Part shown: in pieces, positions 9,393 to 50,756 of the stretch
Numbering within the stretch: the first letter of the stretch is position 1
Layout: every line of letters starts with the position of its first letter
Assembly: GCA_028339975.1 (NCBI GenBank)
Contig: JAOLDG010000001.1
Span: 72,740-136,739 of the forward strand
Length of the DNA: 64,000 nucleotides
Reading direction: 5' to 3'
From: Hyphomicrobiales bacterium
GTDB lineage: Bacteria > Pseudomonadota > Alphaproteobacteria > MED-G09
Position numbers and translations under genes: made by a program
The notes under the pieces: generated by a model
Told to the model about the DNA's origin: nothing
The model's input: the letters and a program-made list of their open reading frames with translations, nothing else
The model's database searches: none

Positions 9393-9815
9393 ATGACAAT
9401 TGAACAACTTTGTGAAGAAAAATCGATGAGGATGACTGACCAAAGAAGAGTCATTGCTAAAATCCTCGATAGCGCAGATGACCATCCCGATGTAGAGGAG
9501 CTGCACAACAGAGCATGTCTGATTGATAAAAATATCTCAGTTGCAACTGTTTACAGAACAGTGAGGCTTTTTGAAGAAGCCGGCATTCTTGTTAGGCATG
9601 AATTCAAAGATGGTAGATCGCGATATGAAAATGTAGATGGTAGCGATCACCACGATCATTTAATTGATATTGAAAATGGTGAAATTATTGAATTTATGAA
9701 TGAAGAAATTGAAGCTATCCAAAAAAAGATTGCAGACACTCTTGGGTACGAACTGATCGACCATCGGCTAGAGCTTTATGGAAGACCAAAAGCGACAAAA
9801 AAGAATTCAAAATAA
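9393..9815 (+). CDS. fur: ferric uptake regulator family transcriptional regulator
   Basis: DQRRVIAKIL, ATVYRTVRLFEEAGIL (wHTH), HHDHLIDIENGEIIEF (metal site S2). Position between rimI and miaB is conserved in Alphaproteobacteria. Confidence 0.8.
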   Translation: MTIEQLCEEKSMRMTDQRRVIAKILDSADDHPDVEELHNRACLIDKNISVATVYRTVRLFEEAGILVRHEFKDGRSRYENVDGSDHHDHLIDIENGEIIEFMNEEIEAIQKKIADTLGYELIDHRLELYGRPKATKKNSK

Positions 9816-42706: not shown

Positions 42707-43309
42707 TTATCCGTTTATAATATTTTTTATCTTTTCAACTATAAGAGCCGATTGAATTTTTGGTGGAAAATAGTCTACAAATTCTCCATTCGCATTTGCT
42801 AAAAAAATTATATCAAGATGATTTACGGTATATTCTTCTTCTCCTTCAAGCACTTCTTTTTCGTAATAAACACCCCAGTCCTGAGCAACTTTATCAATTT
42901 CAGCCTTTGTCCCGGTTAGACCAATAATATCGCTATGGAATGCATTTACATAATTCAAAATTATATTGGGTGTATCTCTTTCAGGGTCTACAGTTATGAA
43001 AATAGAGTTAACTTTTTTTGAGTCTTCACCTAGCTTATCAATTATATCTGCCATTTTAATTAACGTTGTTGGACATACATCTGGACAATAGGTAAAACCA
43101 AAATAAATTAACATTAATTTTTCGGAAGACGCTGAATCAAATATTTTATTATTTTGGTTATTTAAAACAAAGTGACCACCGGGAAGTGAATCTTGGTTCT
43201 CAATTTGTTGAACAAGATTATTTTGATAATAATCTTTGTTAATAAAGAAATATATCGAAACAATTATGAAAATTAGGATTAAGTTTAAAAGTAAAATTTT
43301 TCTAATCAT
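42707..43309 (-). CDS. SCO1/SenC copper chaperone for cytochrome oxidase assembly
   Basis: N-terminal TM anchor, thioredoxin fold with CPDVCP (CxxxC) and a downstream conserved His. Confidence 0.8.
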   Translation of the reverse strand: MIRKILLLNLILIFIIVSIYFFINKDYYQNNLVQQIENQDSLPGGHFVLNNQNNKIFDSASSEKLMLIYFGFTYCPDVCPTTLIKMADIIDKLGEDSKKVNSIFITVDPERDTPNIILNYVNAFHSDIIGLTGTKAEIDKVAQDWGVYYEKEVLEGEEEYTVNHLDIIFLANANGEFVDYFPPKIQSALIVEKIKNIING

Positions 43310-43371: not shown

Positions 43372-43965
43372 ATGTCTGATATATCAAAAAGTCTTTTTTT
43401 AGAAAAAGTAATTTTTTTATTTTTTATTTTATTATGCCTAACCTCATATTCTTTAGCTCAATCCAAGAGTAATAGTCCGTTTAAAGAAGGCCTTGTGGTA
43501 TCTGCTGTTAAATCTGGAACAATGGAAGACTTGATATATTCAATTCAAGTAGGAAATTCTTCTAGCGAATTAGATTTTGATGAGGTCCCTGCATTATTGC
43601 TTGCCGTGGAAAGGGGAAGGCTGGATATGACAGTTTTTCTTTTGAATAAAGGTGCTCGAGTTAATCAAAGGGACAGCCAGAAGAGAACTGCCCTTTCAAT
43701 TGCCGCTCGTAAGAATAACGTTAGTATAGTTAATGAATTGATAAAATTTGGAGCTAAACCTGATAGGTATGGAGCAAATAAGGAAACTCCATTAATAATT
43801 GCAACGCGCTTTGGTAACTATGAATCTGTTGCAGCTCTTCTTAAAGGAGGGGCTTATCCAGATGACACTGATCTTACTGGAAGAACAGCCCTTCAGTGGT
43901 CTAAAATAAAGCATTTTAAAAGAATTGAGCAAGCACTTAAGGAATACGGAGCATATGACAACTAA
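43372..43965 (+). CDS. secreted ankyrin-repeat protein
   Basis: Signal peptide (VIFLFFILLCLTSYSLA/QS) followed by 4 ANK repeats (PALLLAVERGRLDMTVFLLNKGARVN..., TALSIAARKNNVSIVNELIKFGAKPD..., TPLIIATRFGNYESVAALLKGGAYPD..., TALQWS...). Confidence 0.75.
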   Translation: MSDISKSLFLEKVIFLFFILLCLTSYSLAQSKSNSPFKEGLVVSAVKSGTMEDLIYSIQVGNSSSELDFDEVPALLLAVERGRLDMTVFLLNKGARVNQRDSQKRTALSIAARKNNVSIVNELIKFGAKPDRYGANKETPLIIATRFGNYESVAALLKGGAYPDDTDLTGRTALQWSKIKHFKRIEQALKEYGAYDN

Positions 43966-43970
43966 TAAAG

Positions 43971-44852
43971 TTAGAAAATAATCATTCCATCAATTATAAT
44001 TAATATTAATAAAAGGCCTAATTGAATAAATGATGCAAAAAAGTTTTTCATTGCTGCTTCTTTTGTTTTATTAATGGCCAATAATAAACTAGTCCAAATA
44101 AAATATCCTCCACCAAAAATTACACCACCTAGATAAAGTAGTCCCATATTATAAGCTGCAGGTAGAAGAGATACAAAAACAAGTATAACAGTATGAAATA
44201 AAATTATATAAGTTGTTATCGAATGATTAATGATGTTTGGAAGCATTGGTATTTTTGCTTTTTTATAATCATCCCCAATTGCCATTGCAAGACTCCAAAA
44301 ATGAGGTGGTGTCCATAAAAATAGGATAACAGATAAAATTATAGCTTCAGGAGCTAAAGAAGGACTAACTGCTGCAGAACCTGCTAGTGTAGCAAAACTT
44401 CCAGCTAAACCTCCAATTACAATATTCCAAATACTTCTTCTTTTTAGCCAAACTGTATAAATGCCTCCATAAAAAAAAGCTCCAAGAAAATTATAGAAAG
44501 CAGAGAATGGATTTAGTATAAAATACGACAATATTAAACCACTGAAAATTATTAAGGCAAATATAATAAGCCAAATTGGATTCGGATTTAGCCTTCCTGT
44601 GACAAAAGGTCGCTCAGATGTTCTTGGCATCAGAGCATCAATATCTCTTTCAAAGTACTGATTAAATGCACTAGCACCAGCTGATGCTAGAAATGTAGAT
44701 AATGATAATATGAATATTTCAAACCAATTTAGCGAATTATTTGGCATAATAAAAACGCCAGAAATAGCACATAATGTTATAGTTAGGCTTATTCTAACCT
44801 TAAAAAGATTTATTAGTAATTTAAAAAAAGGAAACATAAAATAATTACTCAA
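43971..44852 (-). CDS. ctaB: protoheme IX farnesyltransferase (heme O synthase)
   Basis: UbiA-family polytopic protein with NQYFERDIDALMPRTSERP motif. Confidence 0.9.
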   Translation of the reverse strand: MSNYFMFPFFKLLINLFKVRISLTITLCAISGVFIMPNNSLNWFEIFILSLSTFLASAGASAFNQYFERDIDALMPRTSERPFVTGRLNPNPIWLIIFALIIFSGLILSYFILNPFSAFYNFLGAFFYGGIYTVWLKRRSIWNIVIGGLAGSFATLAGSAAVSPSLAPEAIILSVILFLWTPPHFWSLAMAIGDDYKKAKIPMLPNIINHSITTYIILFHTVILVFVSLLPAAYNMGLLYLGGVIFGGGYFIWTSLLLAINKTKEAAMKNFFASFIQLGLLLILIIIDGMIIF

Positions 44853-45078: not shown

Positions 45079-45927
45079 ATGAGGATTTTTATGGTACCTT
45101 TTATTCTTATAGTTTTGATCATTGGGTCAGTACTTTTTCATATTTTTACTCCTTGGTATTCAACCCCAATTGCTTCGAATTGGTCTAACATTGACAGCAC
45201 AATCGAGTTAACTTTTTGGATGACTGGTGCTGTGTATGTTGCTGTGCTTGGCTTTATGACATACTGTGTTATTCGCTTTAAAAATAAAGAGGGTCAAAAA
45301 GCTGCTTATGAACCTGAAAGTAAAAAAGCTGAAGTTATTCTTACTGTCTTAACAACAATTGGTGTTGCTGGTTTATTGGCCCCCGGCTTAATTGTTTGGG
45401 ATGATTATGTCTCTCCACCTGAAGATGCAATGCCAATTGAGGCGATGGGTCAGCAATGGTATTGGAGTTTTCGTCTTCCTGGAAAAGATGGCATTTTAGG
45501 CACAACTGATGCAAGGAATATTAATGCTGATAATCCGTTTGGAATGAATAAAAATGATCCGAACGGCCAAGATGACATCTTAATTGAAGGTGATGACTTG
45601 CATTTAGAACATGAGAAGCCTGTTAAATTTTTATTAAGATCAATAGATGTTTTACACAATTTTTATGTTCCTCAATTTAGAGCCAAAATGGATTTAGTAC
45701 CAGGTATGGTAACTTTTTATTGGATTAGGCCAACTGTTGCTGGAAATTACGAGATTTTGTGTGCTGAGTTATGTGGTGTAGGCCATCATGCGATGCGTGG
45801 TTATGTTCAAGTCGATAATGCTGATGACTATCAAACATGGCTGAATGATCAATCAACATTTAAAGCATTACAAGAACAAGCAAGGCTAGAAGATAAAAAA
45901 GAATTAGCCTTTAACAAAAGTAAATAA
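45079..45927 (+). CDS. coxB: cytochrome c oxidase subunit II (CuA; no fused cytochrome c domain)
   Basis: Two N-terminal TM helices, cupredoxin domain with CuA ligands H...CAELCGVGHHAM. Confidence 0.85.
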   Translation: MRIFMVPFILIVLIIGSVLFHIFTPWYSTPIASNWSNIDSTIELTFWMTGAVYVAVLGFMTYCVIRFKNKEGQKAAYEPESKKAEVILTVLTTIGVAGLLAPGLIVWDDYVSPPEDAMPIEAMGQQWYWSFRLPGKDGILGTTDARNINADNPFGMNKNDPNGQDDILIEGDDLHLEHEKPVKFLLRSIDVLHNFYVPQFRAKMDLVPGMVTFYWIRPTVAGNYEILCAELCGVGHHAMRGYVQVDNADDYQTWLNDQSTFKALQEQARLEDKKELAFNKSK

Positions 45928-45947: not shown

Positions 45948-47726
45948 ATGTCAGAATCTATAATACCGGAAAGTGAATTAGAGGAAGTTGAACTTTACCA
46001 TGCAAAAAGCTGGTGGACAGAAAAGGTTTTCACCCAAGATGCAAAATTAATTGCAATTCAATATGGGTTAACAGCCTTTGCTATTGGCTTTGTTGCTCTT
46101 GTCTTGTCTTGGTTTATGAGAATTCAAATTGCCTTTCCTGAGCTGTCTATTATTAGTGAAGGAACTTACTACCAGTTCATTACAATGCATGGGATGATTA
46201 TGGTTGTATATCTTCTTACTGCCTTATTCTTAGGAGCATTCGGTAACTATATGATACCACTTATGGTCGGGGCAAGGGATATGGTATTTCCATATTTAAA
46301 TATGGTGAGTTATTGGACTTATTTAGTTGCTGTTTTAGTTTTATTTGTTAGCTTCTTTACTCCCGGAGGGCCAACAGGAGCCGGATGGACACTTTATCCT
46401 CCACAAGCGATTCTAGGCGGGACTCCTGGTCAAGAGAGTGGAATTATTCTTATGCTAGTCTCACTTTGCATATTCATTGTTGGCTTTACAATGGGCGGTC
46501 TAAATTATGTTATTACTATACTTCAAGCGCGAACAAGAGGAATGACTCTTATGAGAATGCCTTTAACAGTATGGGGTATTTTTACAGCAACAGTATTAGC
46601 GCTCTTTGCTTTTCCAGCTCTTTTCGTAAGCGCTGTTATGATGCTATTTGATAAAATCTTATTAACAAGCTTTTTTATGCCTGCGCTAGTTGAGTTTGGA
46701 GAAAATTTAACCTATGGCGGAGGTAGCCCTATTTTATTCCAACATCTTTTTTGGTTTTTTGGTCACCCTGAGGTTTACATTGTTGCTCTGCCAGCCTTTG
46801 GAATAGTGTCTGACTTAATTTCGATTCACGCCCGTAAAAATATTTTTGGTTTTAGGATGATGGTTTGGGCTATTGTTGGTATTGGTGCACTTAGCTTTAT
46901 TGTTTGGGCTCATCATATGTATGTAAGTGGTATGAACCCATACTTTGGTTTCTTTTTCGCTACAACAACGCTTATTATTGCTGTTCCTACGGCATTGAAA
47001 GTTTATAATTGGATCTTAACTCTATGGAAAGGTAATATAAATTTAACAATCCCAATGCTATTTTGTCTTGGCTTTATCGTTACATTTTTAAATGGCGGTC
47101 TAACTGGACTTTTTCTTGGTAACGTCATTGTCGATGTTCCTCTCTCCGATACATACTTTGTAGTGGCCCACTTTCATATGGTTATGGGTATTGCTCCAGT
47201 CTTAGTAATATTAGGCGCCATATACCATTGGTTTCCTCTTATTACAGGTAAAATGCTTCATGAGGGTATGGGACGGTTCCATTTTTGGGTAACTTTTGTT
47301 GGTTCATACTTAATCTATTTCCCAATGCACTATTTAGGTTTTATTGGCGTTCCAAGACGATATTATGAGATGGGACAAACTGAAGCTCTCTACACATCAT
47401 CAGCAGCTGACCTTAATGTTTTTATTACTCTAGCGGCTCTCGCCGTTGGATTTGCTCAGCTTGTTTTTATCTTTAATGTTTTTTGGAGTGCTAAGAGAGG
47501 TATTATTGCAGAAAAGAATCCTTGGAATGCAACTTCTTTGGAGTGGCAAACTCCGGAGCAACCTCCTATTCATGGTAACTTTGGCAAAGAACTTCCAGTG
47601 GTCTATCGTTGGGCTTACGACTACAGTGTTCCAGGCGCTGAGGATGATTATATTCCCCAAGATGTTCCTAATGAAGATGTTAAATTAGCTGACGGTTATT
47701 CAGAGCTAGGAGTAGAAAAAACTTGA
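45948..47726 (+). CDS. coxA: cytochrome c oxidase subunit I
   Basis: 12+ TM, heme/CuB ligands (WFFGHPEVYI, HHMY...), 592 aa. Confidence 0.95.
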   Translation: MSESIIPESELEEVELYHAKSWWTEKVFTQDAKLIAIQYGLTAFAIGFVALVLSWFMRIQIAFPELSIISEGTYYQFITMHGMIMVVYLLTALFLGAFGNYMIPLMVGARDMVFPYLNMVSYWTYLVAVLVLFVSFFTPGGPTGAGWTLYPPQAILGGTPGQESGIILMLVSLCIFIVGFTMGGLNYVITILQARTRGMTLMRMPLTVWGIFTATVLALFAFPALFVSAVMMLFDKILLTSFFMPALVEFGENLTYGGGSPILFQHLFWFFGHPEVYIVALPAFGIVSDLISIHARKNIFGFRMMVWAIVGIGALSFIVWAHHMYVSGMNPYFGFFFATTTLIIAVPTALKVYNWILTLWKGNINLTIPMLFCLGFIVTFLNGGLTGLFLGNVIVDVPLSDTYFVVAHFHMVMGIAPVLVILGAIYHWFPLITGKMLHEGMGRFHFWVTFVGSYLIYFPMHYLGFIGVPRRYYEMGQTEALYTSSAADLNVFITLAALAVGFAQLVFIFNVFWSAKRGIIAEKNPWNATSLEWQTPEQPPIHGNFGKELPVVYRWAYDYSVPGAEDDYIPQDVPNEDVKLADGYSELGVEKT

Positions 47727-48343
47727 GTATATTTAGCACATTATCACAAAAGCCTTGGATGGCAGATCAAGCGGCGATCGATAATAATCATATCGGTCAA
47801 GCAGTATCAATGCCCCTTCCAAGAGTTGCACTATATGTCTTGATGGCTGTAATTGGTGTTTTGTTTTCATTGTTTTCAGTAGCCTATATAGGCAGAATGG
47901 CTTATGGCGATTGGCGAACTTTACCAGAACCCACATTACTTTGGTTGAATACAGCTATAATTATGTTAAGTAGTATTTCCTTTCACCAGGCTACTAAAAA
48001 TGCAAAAGAAAACCAAATTAAAAGGTCTCGCGAATATCTTTTACTTTCTGGTGTCTTAACTTTTGGTTTTATTGTGGGACAGCTTTTTGTTTGGCGTGAA
48101 TTAGTTTCTTTTGGTTATTTTGCTTCAACTAATCCATCTTATGCCTTCTTTTATTTGTTAACGGCCTTGCACATACTTCATTTAGCCGGTGGTCTAATTG
48201 CTTGGACAGTCGTAACCATTAAAAGTTTTATTCCACAAAAGGAAACTTCCGATTTCGCTCTTAAGGTTAATCTTTGTGCAGTTTATTGGCACTTTTTATT
48301 AATTGTATGGGCACTTTTATTTACTATGCTTTTGTTAACATAA
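47723..48343 (+). CDS. cytochrome c oxidase subunit III-like protein (short, 5-TM paralogue)
   Basis: FFYLLTALHILHLAGGLI...VYWHFLLIVW resembles the C-terminal helices of COX3. TTG start overlapping the coxA stop. Confidence 0.6.
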   Translation: MSIFSTLSQKPWMADQAAIDNNHIGQAVSMPLPRVALYVLMAVIGVLFSLFSVAYIGRMAYGDWRTLPEPTLLWLNTAIIMLSSISFHQATKNAKENQIKRSREYLLLSGVLTFGFIVGQLFVWRELVSFGYFASTNPSYAFFYLLTALHILHLAGGLIAWTVVTIKSFIPQKETSDFALKVNLCAVYWHFLLIVWALLFTMLLLT

Positions 48344-48367: not shown

Positions 48368-49075
48368 TTGATGAGTACTACTTCAAAAATACCGCTTAAG
48401 GATGGCGTAGAAGGTTTTGTTTCTGATTGGTCTTCTGATCAAAGGGCTTTTAAGGGAGTACCTTGGGGCAAAGCCATGATGTGGATATTTCTTTTAAGTG
48501 ATACCTTTATTTTTAGTATCTTTTTGATTTCCTATATGACCGCAAGATGGTCGACAGTAGAGCCCTGGCCTAATACTAGTGAGGTGTTTTCACTTACAGT
48601 TAATGGTGTAAGCGTTCCCCTTCTCTTAATTGCCATTATGACATTTATTTTAATTACTAGCAGTGGAACAATGGCTATGGCTGTTAGAAGTGGCTATCAA
48701 AAGAAAAGAAAGCAGGCGGGAGCGCTATTGCTCTTAACTGCTATCTTAGGGATGTCCTTCGTTGGAATGCAAATGTTTGAGTGGAGTAAGCTAATATCTG
48801 AAGGTATCCGTCCTTGGGAAAATCCATTTGGAGCAAGACAATTTGGTTCTGTCTTTTTTATGGTAACGGGTTTCCATGGTGTTCATGTTTCTGTTGGTGT
48901 ATTATTTTTATTTCTTACATCTAGAAAAGTTTTCCGCGGTGATTACGATACGGGGCGCAGAGGATTTTTTACATGGCAAAAAGGACGCTATGAGATTATA
49001 GAAACACTTGGTTTATATTGGCATTTTGTTGATCTAGTTTGGGTCTTCATTTTTGCTTTTTTCTATCTTTGGTGA
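48368..49075 (+). CDS. coxC: cytochrome c oxidase subunit III
   Basis: Canonical COX3 blocks: MFEWSKL, FFMVTGFHGVHVSVG, YWHFVDLVWVFIF. Confidence 0.8.
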   Translation: MMSTTSKIPLKDGVEGFVSDWSSDQRAFKGVPWGKAMMWIFLLSDTFIFSIFLISYMTARWSTVEPWPNTSEVFSLTVNGVSVPLLLIAIMTFILITSSGTMAMAVRSGYQKKRKQAGALLLLTAILGMSFVGMQMFEWSKLISEGIRPWENPFGARQFGSVFFMVTGFHGVHVSVGVLFLFLTSRKVFRGDYDTGRRGFFTWQKGRYEIIETLGLYWHFVDLVWVFIFAFFYLW

Positions 49076-49083
49076 GGTAAATA

Positions 49084-49500
49084 ATGGCACAAGAAGAACA
49101 AGAAGGACAAGAACATCCTATTAGCACATACCTATGGGTATGGTTATTGCTGTTTGTATTGAGCGCATGTTCTTATTATGTTGATTATGCTGGGTTTCAA
49201 GGTTTTACACGTTGGAGCTTAGTACTCCTATTTATGTTTTTAAAAGCTTATTTTATCTGTGCAGTCTTTATGCATATGGTTTGGGAAAGAATGGCTTTGG
49301 TTTTAGCCTTATTTATTCCAACCTTTGCAATTATAGTTTTTGTAGGAATTATGGGCTTTGAATCTGATTATACACAGTTGGGACGTAAAGTATTTTTTGA
49401 TACAGGCAAGCCACCAACAGTTTATGCGGTCCCACATAGTGAGGCTCACAATGATACTCATTCGGATGGCGATGCTCATTCTGATGAGGATGAGCATTAG
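49084..49500 (+). CDS. small 3-TM oxidase subunit (prokaryotic CoxIV/CtaF-like) with His/Asp-rich C-terminal tail
   Basis: Three predicted TM helices with a FMHMVWER block like bacterial subunit IV. Tail HSEAHNDTHSDGDAHSDEDEH. Confidence 0.5.
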   Translation: MAQEEQEGQEHPISTYLWVWLLLFVLSACSYYVDYAGFQGFTRWSLVLLFMFLKAYFICAVFMHMVWERMALVLALFIPTFAIIVFVGIMGFESDYTQLGRKVFFDTGKPPTVYAVPHSEAHNDTHSDGDAHSDEDEH

Positions 49501-49514
49501 ATTAAGTTATAAAT

Positions 49515-50048
49515 ATGTATAAAACACTCTTAATTGCTGTAATAATTTTACTAGCCCCTCTTTCGTTGCAGGCTAAAAATACTAAGTTTATGGACGAAAT
49601 TAATAGGCTTGCTAGTGAAGGGTATGTTGATGCTCAATATAACTTAGCGCGAATATACTCTAATGGTGAATCTGTTGATCAAGATTTAGAGTTAGCGGCT
49701 TATTGGTTTCTTCAGGCTGCAGAAAAAGGTAATAGAGATGCACAGCATCAGCTTGCGAGAATGTTTGAAAAAGGATTTGGTTTAGAAATGGATCTCAAAG
49801 AGGCATTTAACTGGTATAAGCTATCTGCTGAACAGGGTAGTATAGAATCCCAATACAGTCTCGGGTTAGCTTATAGATTTGGTATTGGTGTTGATCAAAA
49901 TTTTACCCAATCTTTGAGATGGTATAAGTTATCTGCCTCAAAAGGACATAGCGGGTCTCAATATAATCTTAATCTTCTATACGAGGAAGGACTGGCAACA
50001 AGAAAAGATATTTCTGATGCAATTAAATGGTATAGGTGTGGAAGATAA
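49515..50048 (+). CDS. secreted Sel1-like repeat (TPR-like) protein
   Basis: Signal peptide (LLIAVIILLAPLSLQA), then about 4 Sel1 repeats (AQYNLARIY..G.GV.QD...A..W...AA..G...AQ..L). Confidence 0.75.
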   Translation: MYKTLLIAVIILLAPLSLQAKNTKFMDEINRLASEGYVDAQYNLARIYSNGESVDQDLELAAYWFLQAAEKGNRDAQHQLARMFEKGFGLEMDLKEAFNWYKLSAEQGSIESQYSLGLAYRFGIGVDQNFTQSLRWYKLSASKGHSGSQYNLNLLYEEGLATRKDISDAIKWYRCGR

Positions 50049-50315: not shown

Positions 50316-50756
50316 TTAGTTATCATCTTCGATTGGTACTGACGCAATTACGTCAGAGACATCATCTTCTAAAAAATCATCGTCATCATCTTCATCATCT
50401 TCATTTAGCTCATCAATCCCTTCATCGTCAAATTCAGTTAAATCATCATCAGCATCATTTTCAACAATTTCATCATCTGAAGAATTCTCGAGATCAGGAA
50501 TACTTTCTTCGTCGATTTCTGGAATTACTGTATCTGAGTTTTCTTCAGTATTATCATCTTTATCTTCGGTTTCATCATTCGGATTAATTTCATTTTTTTC
50601 AATAAGTTCTATTTTATCTTTTTCGGGATCTTTTAAAACAGCTTCATTTAAAATTTCACCAGTATAAGGACTCACTATCGGATCCTTATTTAAGTCATAG
50701 AATATTTTACCTGTCGAAGGACAAACTCTTTTTTTACCTAAATCTTTTTTACTCAT
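50316..50756 (-). CDS. FYDLN_acid family protein (TIGR02300-like): conserved N-terminal FYDLN motif with poly-acidic tail
   Basis: N-terminus RVCPSTGKIFYDLNKDPIVSPYTG, then about 100 aa that are more than 50% Asp/Glu. This family is typically found in Alphaproteobacteria. Confidence 0.6.
   Translation of the reverse strand: MSKKDLGKKRVCPSTGKIFYDLNKDPIVSPYTGEILNEAVLKDPEKDKIELIEKNEINPNDETEDKDDNTEENSDTVIPEIDEESIPDLENSSDDEIVENDADDDLTEFDDEGIDELNEDDEDDDDDFLEDDVSDVIASVPIEDDN

Follow-up and report, generated by a model that had tools for sequence, protein, structure and literature searches.

A histidine-rich C-terminal tail on subunit IV of a marine coxMNOPQ-type cytochrome c oxidase, a candidate periplasmic metal-binding arm

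The locus described here raises a simple question: what is a histidine-rich peptide doing at the end of a small membrane subunit of a respiratory oxidase? The subunit is encoded at positions 49084 to 49500 of a 64,000-nucleotide stretch of contig JAOLDG010000001.1 (the window), which belongs to an uncultured, AT-rich (34% GC, guanine plus cytosine) marine alphaproteobacterium related to metagenome-assembled genomes (MAGs) of Rhodobiaceae and Hyphomicrobiales. It is the fifth subunit of an oxidase which, judged by its genes, is a coxMNOPQ-type, CuA-containing aa3-type cytochrome c oxidase. The COX4_pro subunit and the coxMNOPQ cluster type are both known; what is new is the variant of that subunit with a His-rich tail. 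Briefly, purifying selection holds the histidines of the tail and lets the surrounding tail residues drift. As far as the sequences allow a reading, the tail probably binds metal, and the metal is perhaps copper for the enzyme.

The tail and its conservation

The open reading frame (ORF) runs from an ATG, with the ribosome-binding site GAGG 7-8 nt ahead of it, to a TAG, and begins 8 nt after the stop of the second COX3-like gene of the operon. Its product matches the Pfam model PF03626 (COX4_pro) with 45.2 bits (E=1.3e-11), above the gathering cut-off of 28.9 bits, and the match covers residues 17-87, equivalent to profile positions 1-71 of 72. With only 19.6 bits against the NCBIfam model TIGR02229 (caa3_sub_IV, cut-off 37.25), it falls outside that subfamily. 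An AlphaFold2 model, built from a 38-sequence alignment with the subunit modelled alone, has three helices (residues 13-36, 41-64 and 69-106) followed by coil, and thus the 138-residue protein has the COX4_pro family trait of three transmembrane helices in about 100-140 amino acids (aa). An initial annotation of this DNA had described a CoxIV-like small subunit with three helices; the COX4_pro match above cut-off, the AlphaFold2 helices and the location of the gene in an oxidase operon beside the genes for SCO1 and a presumed heme O synthase all agree with it. The gene and the parts of its product are as follows.

49084..49500, + strand: gene of the small fifth oxidase subunit (COX4_pro, CoxQ-type subunit IV), 138 aa; from the ORF list, Pfam and the position in the cassette
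49120..49191, + strand: helix 1, residues 13-36, with the invariant H11-P12 just before it; AlphaFold2 and alignment
49204..49275, + strand: helix 2, residues 41-64, with invariant R43-W44, K54 and F62-M63-H64; AlphaFold2 and alignment
49288..49401, + strand: helix 3, residues 69-106, a transmembrane part plus a conserved juxtamembrane extension; AlphaFold2 and alignment
49402..49434, + strand: linker TGKPPTVYAVP, residues 107-117, up to the first tail histidine; coil in AlphaFold2, kept in the marine clade
49435..49497, + strand: His/Asp/Glu-rich tail HSEAHNDTHSDGDAHSDEDEH, residues 118-138; sequence, codon conservation and a predicted local distance difference test score (pLDDT) of about 50
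49453..49498, + strand: 18-nt tandem duplication THSDGD/AHSDED; Tandem Repeats Finder (TRF; period 18, 2.2 copies) and comparison with 129-aa variants

The membrane part in front of the tail is well conserved. Invariant alignment columns are H11, P12, Y16, W20, D34, R43, W44, K54, F62-M63-H64, E68, P79 and R101, and the extension of helix 3, which runs about 14 residues past the bilayer, carries the motif E93-x2-Y96-x4-R101-x2-FF with a ratio of nonsynonymous to synonymous substitution rates (dN/dS) of 0.036. For a protein named subunit IV, the conservation of the coxMNOPQ-type subunit is unusually high.

The tail itself contains five histidines (residues 118, 122, 126, 132 and 138; 24% of its 21 residues) and eight Asp or Glu, no Lys or Arg and no Met or Cys, which gives a net charge of about -8. 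The count matches the initial description of about 21 residues with five His and Asp/Glu, and the (A/T)HSD repeat reported along with it proved to be a true 18-nt tandem duplication by TRF, which adds six residues and one histidine relative to the 129-aa relatives described below. Along the tail, the pLDDT drops from 58 to 48 and the AlphaFold2 model has no secondary structure. Taking the histidine frequency of the window (1.65%) as a base, the chance of at least five histidines in 21 residues is P = 2e-5 per position, and since about 0.4 such stretches are expected across the coding content of the window, the composition alone is merely suggestive. The reality of the tail is decided instead by conservation, because the relatives retain histidine at these positions and differ in the rest of the tail. 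The sole other real protein of the window with four histidines in 21 residues is a Fur-family metal regulator (140 aa, 9393-9815, + strand), whose His-dense stretch is its usual HHDH metal site (DHHDH). A spurious His-rich ORF (50333-50587, + strand) arises antisense to the gene of a FYDLN_acid family protein (50316-50756, - strand), which is extremely Asp/Glu-rich in its C-terminal half.

The identical 138-aa protein is present on 12 public contigs, and the same tail is found in the nearest relatives (97-100% identity). In a large clade of proteins with about 85% identity, the chain is 129 aa long and its end reads PHSKEHSKDHSGDEAH or a variant of that sequence; hundreds of contigs of marine and Tara Oceans origin, up to 1.49 Mb long and labelled as Rhodobiaceae or Hyphomicrobiales MAGs, carry these 129-aa variants. 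The tail of the window corresponds to that of the 129-aa clade plus one duplicated six-residue unit. Remoter marine relatives carry other His-rich tails, for instance PHDAHKAEHHDDSHSAGEAH and PHGAHQPDGHEENHNGEDH.

Nei-Gojobori statistics were calculated on 20 distinct marine DNA sequences of the 129-aa clade. The dN/dS was 0.04 for the core of the protein (113 codons) and 0.55 for the 12 non-His codons of the tail. At the four shared His codons of the tail, the proportion of nonsynonymous differences (pN) was 0.009, although CAT and CAC both occur there. The pattern under selection in this clade is P-H-x3-H-x3-H-x5-H-COOH. The positions between the histidines vary among Ser, Lys, Glu, Asp, Gly, Asn, Val and Thr, with two to three Lys in the tails, and since these interspersed residues are free to vary, acidity is not the selected property. 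The alignment with relatives that the initial annotation had proposed as a check has therefore a clear outcome: the tail is kept in close relatives and its histidines are under purifying selection.

To place the tail in the wider family, 80 species-representative homologues were classed by their C-terminal ends, with "no tail" defined as an end within 21 residues of the E93 equivalent. By this definition, 55 of the 80 are tail-less, 22 have a short tail and three a long extension. The statement that bacterial subunit IV normally lacks such a tail thus holds for about 70% of the family and fails for the 25 extended members, 19 of which end in histidine. These 19 all belong to the 22 short tails (typical endings are ...EHH, ...PPPSH, ...KPH, ...NHHH and ...EHHHASGH), and two more have a histidine within the last three residues. 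Across the short-tailed homologues, histidine makes up 28% of the distal tail residues, and the first tail histidine lies 22-29 residues (mostly 23-27) past the E93 equivalent; H118 of the window protein lies at 26. In a neighbour-joining tree of CoxI, the tail-bearing lineages form about nine separate groups among tail-less ones, and the termination of tails in histidine has P ~4e-11 even if only nine independent lineages are counted. On these alignments, the tail of the window is the most elaborate form of a recurrent family feature.

Bacteria with coxMNOPQ clusters, namely Bradyrhizobium, Mesorhizobium, Cupriavidus necator, Polaromonas and Pseudomonas pseudoalcaligenes KF707, also have a member of this Pfam family encoded fifth in the cluster. 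Their CoxQ proteins are 50-65% identical to the window protein over the three helices and share H11, P12, D34, R43, W44, K54, H64, E68 and R101 with it. However, the CoxQ of cultured soil bacteria end 14-20 residues past the E93 equivalent and have no His tail, whereas the window protein adds about 25 residues with five histidines.

A profile search of 1.84 billion cluster representatives gave 964 matches. This set is unusable for tail statistics, given that fragments and frameshifted chimeras make up most of the representatives when clustering is at 50%, but it revealed a sister subfamily whose subunit IV has a tail with the conserved motif RCPx5NPHCxPMxH (L168 7001-7378, which is P0144, and P0260). 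By its residues, this Cys/His/Met ligand set is typical of copper sites. The operon of the sister subfamily has four genes, namely COX2 with cytochrome c, COX1, a single COX3 and COX4_pro, and is adjoined by a HiPIP gene.

Membrane side of the C-terminus

Whether the tail can meet metal outside the cytoplasm depends on the side from which the chain leaves the membrane. Judged from homologous sequences, the C-terminus of subunit IV is probably periplasmic, because three homologues carry LysM at their C-terminus and because of the family relation to CyoD. The initial annotation had also considered a cytoplasmic location of the tail; these two lines favour the periplasm. The LysM domains (Pfam E=3e-9 to 1e-7) are found in Methylocella-like homologues, where an Ala/Pro/Ser/Lys-rich linker of about 100 residues joins them to subunit IV.

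L009 8001-8777: subunit IV-LysM fusion, Pfam LysM
L013 8001-8738: subunit IV-LysM fusion, Pfam LysM
L058 103-909: subunit IV-LysM fusion, Pfam LysM

LysM is a peptidoglycan-binding module that normally acts outside the cytoplasmic membrane, and through such a fusion a respiratory oxidase would be anchored to the cell wall. As for the second line, the PF03626 match is collinear with the CyoD/QoxD/CtaF family, and the topology of CyoD is known from fusion studies and bo3 structures to be N-in/C-out. E. coli CyoD, subunit IV of cytochrome bo3, is likewise a three-helix subunit encoded after subunit III and recognized by the same Pfam model, and its C-terminus, NYNMMMH, likewise ends in a histidine, preceded by Met (L007 1718-2047). 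It differs in being part of a quinol oxidase without CuA and in having only about 10 residues after helix 3.

Other results lend this placement no support. The positive-inside rule gives no clear answer, as the presumed cytoplasmic side has about 1.7 Lys/Arg and the presumed periplasmic side about 2.4; much of the outer count consists of the invariant R43 and R101, which may be engaged in subunit contacts. Sequence and profile searches of the PDB retrieved no solved homologue, CyoD and QoxD included, and an hhalign comparison of the family alignment with E. coli CyoD was insignificant (probability 0.3%). Foldseek, run with the AlphaFold2 model, found nothing in the PDB at E below 3, which leaves the C-terminus unplaced relative to the CuA domain. 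An apparent CoxQ-cytochrome c fusion (P0141), which would speak for an outer C-terminus, was not used as topology evidence, as it possibly stems from a chimeric contig.

Candidate functions of the tail

The reading we favour, with a probability of roughly 40%, is that the tail is a tethered arm which captures Cu(II) or retains copper and so serves the metallation of the oxidase. The subunit would span the membrane with three helices, N-terminus in and C-terminus out, so that the chain exits on the periplasmic side. Beyond the membrane, a short conserved helix and the linker would come first, and then a disordered arm in which about 21 residues follow the pattern P-H-x3-H-x3-H-x5-H(-x5-H). Chelation of a divalent metal ion by the imidazoles in the periplasm would be the likeliest reason for their selection, since they are regularly spaced and selected in an otherwise drifting, disordered peptide. 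Cu(II) is the favoured metal, as the enzyme that bears the arm contains copper and is metallated on the same side, and as SCO1 is encoded next door. The Cys/His/Met tail of the sister subfamily provides a further link to copper. The arm may then capture, hold or hand over copper near the oxidase, perhaps to CuA/CuB, like the His/Met-rich tails of PCuAC chaperones, and as the disordered residues 107-138 (32 in all) could stretch to about 100 Å, it might reach any point of the outer face of the complex.

The PCuAC chaperones offer the closest parallel. In PcuC of B. diazoefficiens, a flexible tail of 23 residues is the preferred Cu(II) site and the sole site that donates copper to CoxB (PMC6669012). 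The tails of PcuC and of AccA from N. gonorrhoeae are, like that of the window protein, C-terminal, about 20 residues long, disordered, poorly conserved and His-enriched; they are periplasmic and bind Cu(II) (PMC6669012, PMC13006917). They differ in that they contain Met and belong to a soluble chaperone that is cupredoxin-like and has a Cu(I) site of its own, whereas the tail of the window has no Met and is part of a membrane subunit of the target enzyme itself. No PCuAC motif (HXnMX21/22HXM) was found within the window, and the likeness is one of mechanism, an analogy and not homology. Other disordered periplasmic metal loops or sponges in which histidines alternate with acidic residues are the His-rich loop of ZnuA and the proteins SilE and PcoE; these are likened to the tail by description only and serve zinc import or silver/copper resistance instead of being part of a respiratory enzyme. 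In the literature searched, whose coverage was that outside subscription journals, there was no report of an oxidase subunit IV with a tail rich in His or ending in it.

Three points count against a copper arm. The absence of Met and Cys makes the tail resemble Zn/Ni-type His/Asp loops as much as copper sites, and by composition His with Asp/Glu suits Cu(II), Zn(II) or Ni(II) equally. The analogous tail of AccA is dispensable in vivo (PMC13006917). Finally, since 55 of the 80 species have no tail, it is dispensable for the core function of the enzyme. A more far-reaching version of the copper arm seems unlikely to us, on present sequences: the tail would serve as a periplasmic metallochaperone built into the enzyme, or as an intersubunit metal site, Cu(II) would be passed to Sco1/CuA or retained beside the enzyme, the tails of soluble chaperones would be partly replaced in streamlined, copper-starved marine bacteria, and the marine multi-His form would be an upgrade of affinity or capacity by tandem duplication.

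Two other functions deserve to be weighed, both of them doubtful. The tail could be a generic periplasmic sponge or buffer for Zn(II), Ni(II) or divalent cations at large, not specific for copper, either scavenging trace metals in oligotrophic seawater or keeping inhibitory cations such as Zn2+ off the outer face of the oxidase. This agrees with a composition of His and Asp/Glu without Met or Cys, as in the His/Asp-rich loop of ZnuA, with selection on histidine alone, and with the many tail-bearing lineages that are made up of marine or aquatic MAGs. However, the acidic residues are not conserved, Lys stands at several tail positions in the 129-aa relatives, the tail is tethered to one particular copper enzyme and not to a transporter, and the sister subfamily has a copper-type Cys/His/Met ligand set.

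Alternatively, the tail might dock. A positionally conserved histidine (H118 in the window, and in most other lineages the residue that ends the chain) would bind at a fixed point of the periplasmic face, such as a small metal or hydrogen-bond site between subunits, and the marine clade, with its additional histidines, would have elaborated on this arrangement. The near-constant distance of the first histidine from the membrane exit (mostly 23-27 residues) in about nine lineages with otherwise unrelated linkers speaks for this, as does the fact that 19 of the 22 short tails stop exactly at a histidine. A possible partner is an extra histidine of CoxII (GHHxM), which is present in five of the about nine tail-bearing lineages and also in three to four tail-less ones, a correlation that is weak and confounded by phylogeny. 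Moreover, no tail structure appears in the AlphaFold2 model of the subunit alone, and docking leaves the conservation of four or five evenly spaced histidines in the marine clade unexplained.

The three remaining explanations fare far worse. It is very improbable that the tail is a functionless appendix, a neutral low-complexity expansion prone to slippage. Part of it was indeed made by the 18-nt duplication, its non-His positions evolve almost freely (dN/dS 0.55) and the majority of the family is tail-less; yet the His codons change synonymously and are near-invariant in the protein (pN 0.009), saturated synonymous sites argue against very recent common ancestry as the cause of this conservation, and His-terminated tails recur in many lineages (P ~4e-11, as above).

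With an inverted topology, the tail would be a cytoplasmic antenna in which a His/carboxylate cluster near subunit III collects protons for the entrance of the D-channel. Such clusters do act as proton antennae on the inner face of oxidases, and Lys/Arg are slightly more numerous on the tail-bearing side, but the C-terminal LysM fusions of three homologues, the collinear match to an N-in/C-out family and the lack of conserved carboxylates make this hard to credit.

Nor is the tail at all likely to be an electrostatic lure that raises the local concentration of basic cytochrome c for a CoxII without a fused heme c domain: its net charge of about -8 and the lack of CXXCH in CoxII would fit, but selection acts on histidine and not on charge, the acidity is not conserved (relatives have two to three Lys in the tail), and many His-tailed homologues have a long CoxII able to hold a fused cytochrome c (a Cytochrom_C Pfam match in L168).

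The oxidase operon, its neighbours and the meaning of the tail

The genes around that of subunit IV are listed below; clusters of this type are named coxMNOP or coxMNOPQ (PMC5492768; bioRxiv 10.1101/2024.02.26.582058).

42707..43309, - strand: SCO1/SenC copper chaperone gene, upstream of the operon; Pfam PF02630 E=5.4e-44, syntenic in marine relatives
43372..43965, + strand: ankyrin-repeat protein, N-terminus hydrophobic, encoded between the SCO1 and UbiA-family genes; synteny
43971..44852, - strand: UbiA-family prenyltransferase; Pfam UbiA E=3.4e-51, synteny
45079..45927, + strand: CoxII (CoxM-type), CuA motif CAELCGVGHHAM present, heme c site absent; Pfam COX2, TIGR02866, motif
45948..47726, + strand: CoxI (CoxN-type), 592 aa; Pfam COX1 E=3.8e-133
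47723..48343, + strand: first COX3-like subunit (CoxO-type), 206 aa; Pfam COX3
48368..49075, + strand: second COX3-like subunit (CoxP-type), 235 aa; Pfam COX3
49515..50048, + strand: Sel1-repeat protein with a signal-peptide-like N-terminus; Pfam Sel1

The order CoxII-CoxI-Cox3-Cox3-CoxIV is kept in 80 of 80 genome loci, with subunit IV always fifth, and carriers of the cassette include Bradyrhizobium, Mesorhizobium, Microvirga, Cupriavidus, Polaromonas and many gammaproteobacterial MAGs. CoxI scores 651.8 bits with TIGR02891, slightly below the cut-off of 670.75, and its translation contains GHPEVY, HHMY and AHFH, which we take to be the CuB/heme motifs. In CoxII, an extra histidine follows directly after the CuA His ligand (the GHHxM form), and no CXXCH was found in the window CoxII; the CoxM of KF707, in contrast, carries two heme c domains (PMC5492768).

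At the CoxI motif VDVPLSDTYFVVAHFH, nearly all related loci, tailed or not, have Ser-Asp (PLSDT). Canonical aa3 oxidases have the His-Asp ligands of the Mg/Mn site at that position (LHDTY), and the sequence therefore suggests that coxMNOPQ-type oxidases have an altered or absent Mg/Mn site. The idea that the tail compensates for the lost Mg/Mn-site histidine of CoxI was rejected, since PLSDT is present irrespective of the tail.

The UbiA-family enzyme is presumably heme O synthase, judged by its position beside the oxidase genes. The ankyrin-repeat gene is kept in place in marine relatives (77-78% identity in L001-L006, 58% in L008), and an exported ankyrin protein within an oxidase-assembly neighbourhood is unusual. 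On the other side, the Sel1-repeat gene begins 15 nt past the stop of subunit IV without a terminator between them and is probably co-transcribed with it; a promoter and terminator scan was uninformative. The gene occurs at this position only in the marine clade (L001-L006, L008), and its product resembles generic Sel1 proteins, the mitochondrial assembly factor COA7 being only a weak match (E=1.8e-5).

What is understood of how bacterial oxidases receive their copper centres mainly on chaperones, soluble or anchored, such as Sco, PCuAC and Cox11. If the tail is a mere non-specific sponge or a structural tether, it would be a small point of annotation in an oxidase family that has been little studied. 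If the reading as a copper arm is true, a metal-binding arm borne by the enzyme itself would be a new element in the copper-insertion pathway of oxidases. Present in about a quarter of the coxMNOPQ-type oxidases, and expanded in a marine clade that is both abundant and genome-streamlined, the tail could matter for the way in which bacteria of oligotrophic seas keep respiring at very low copper.

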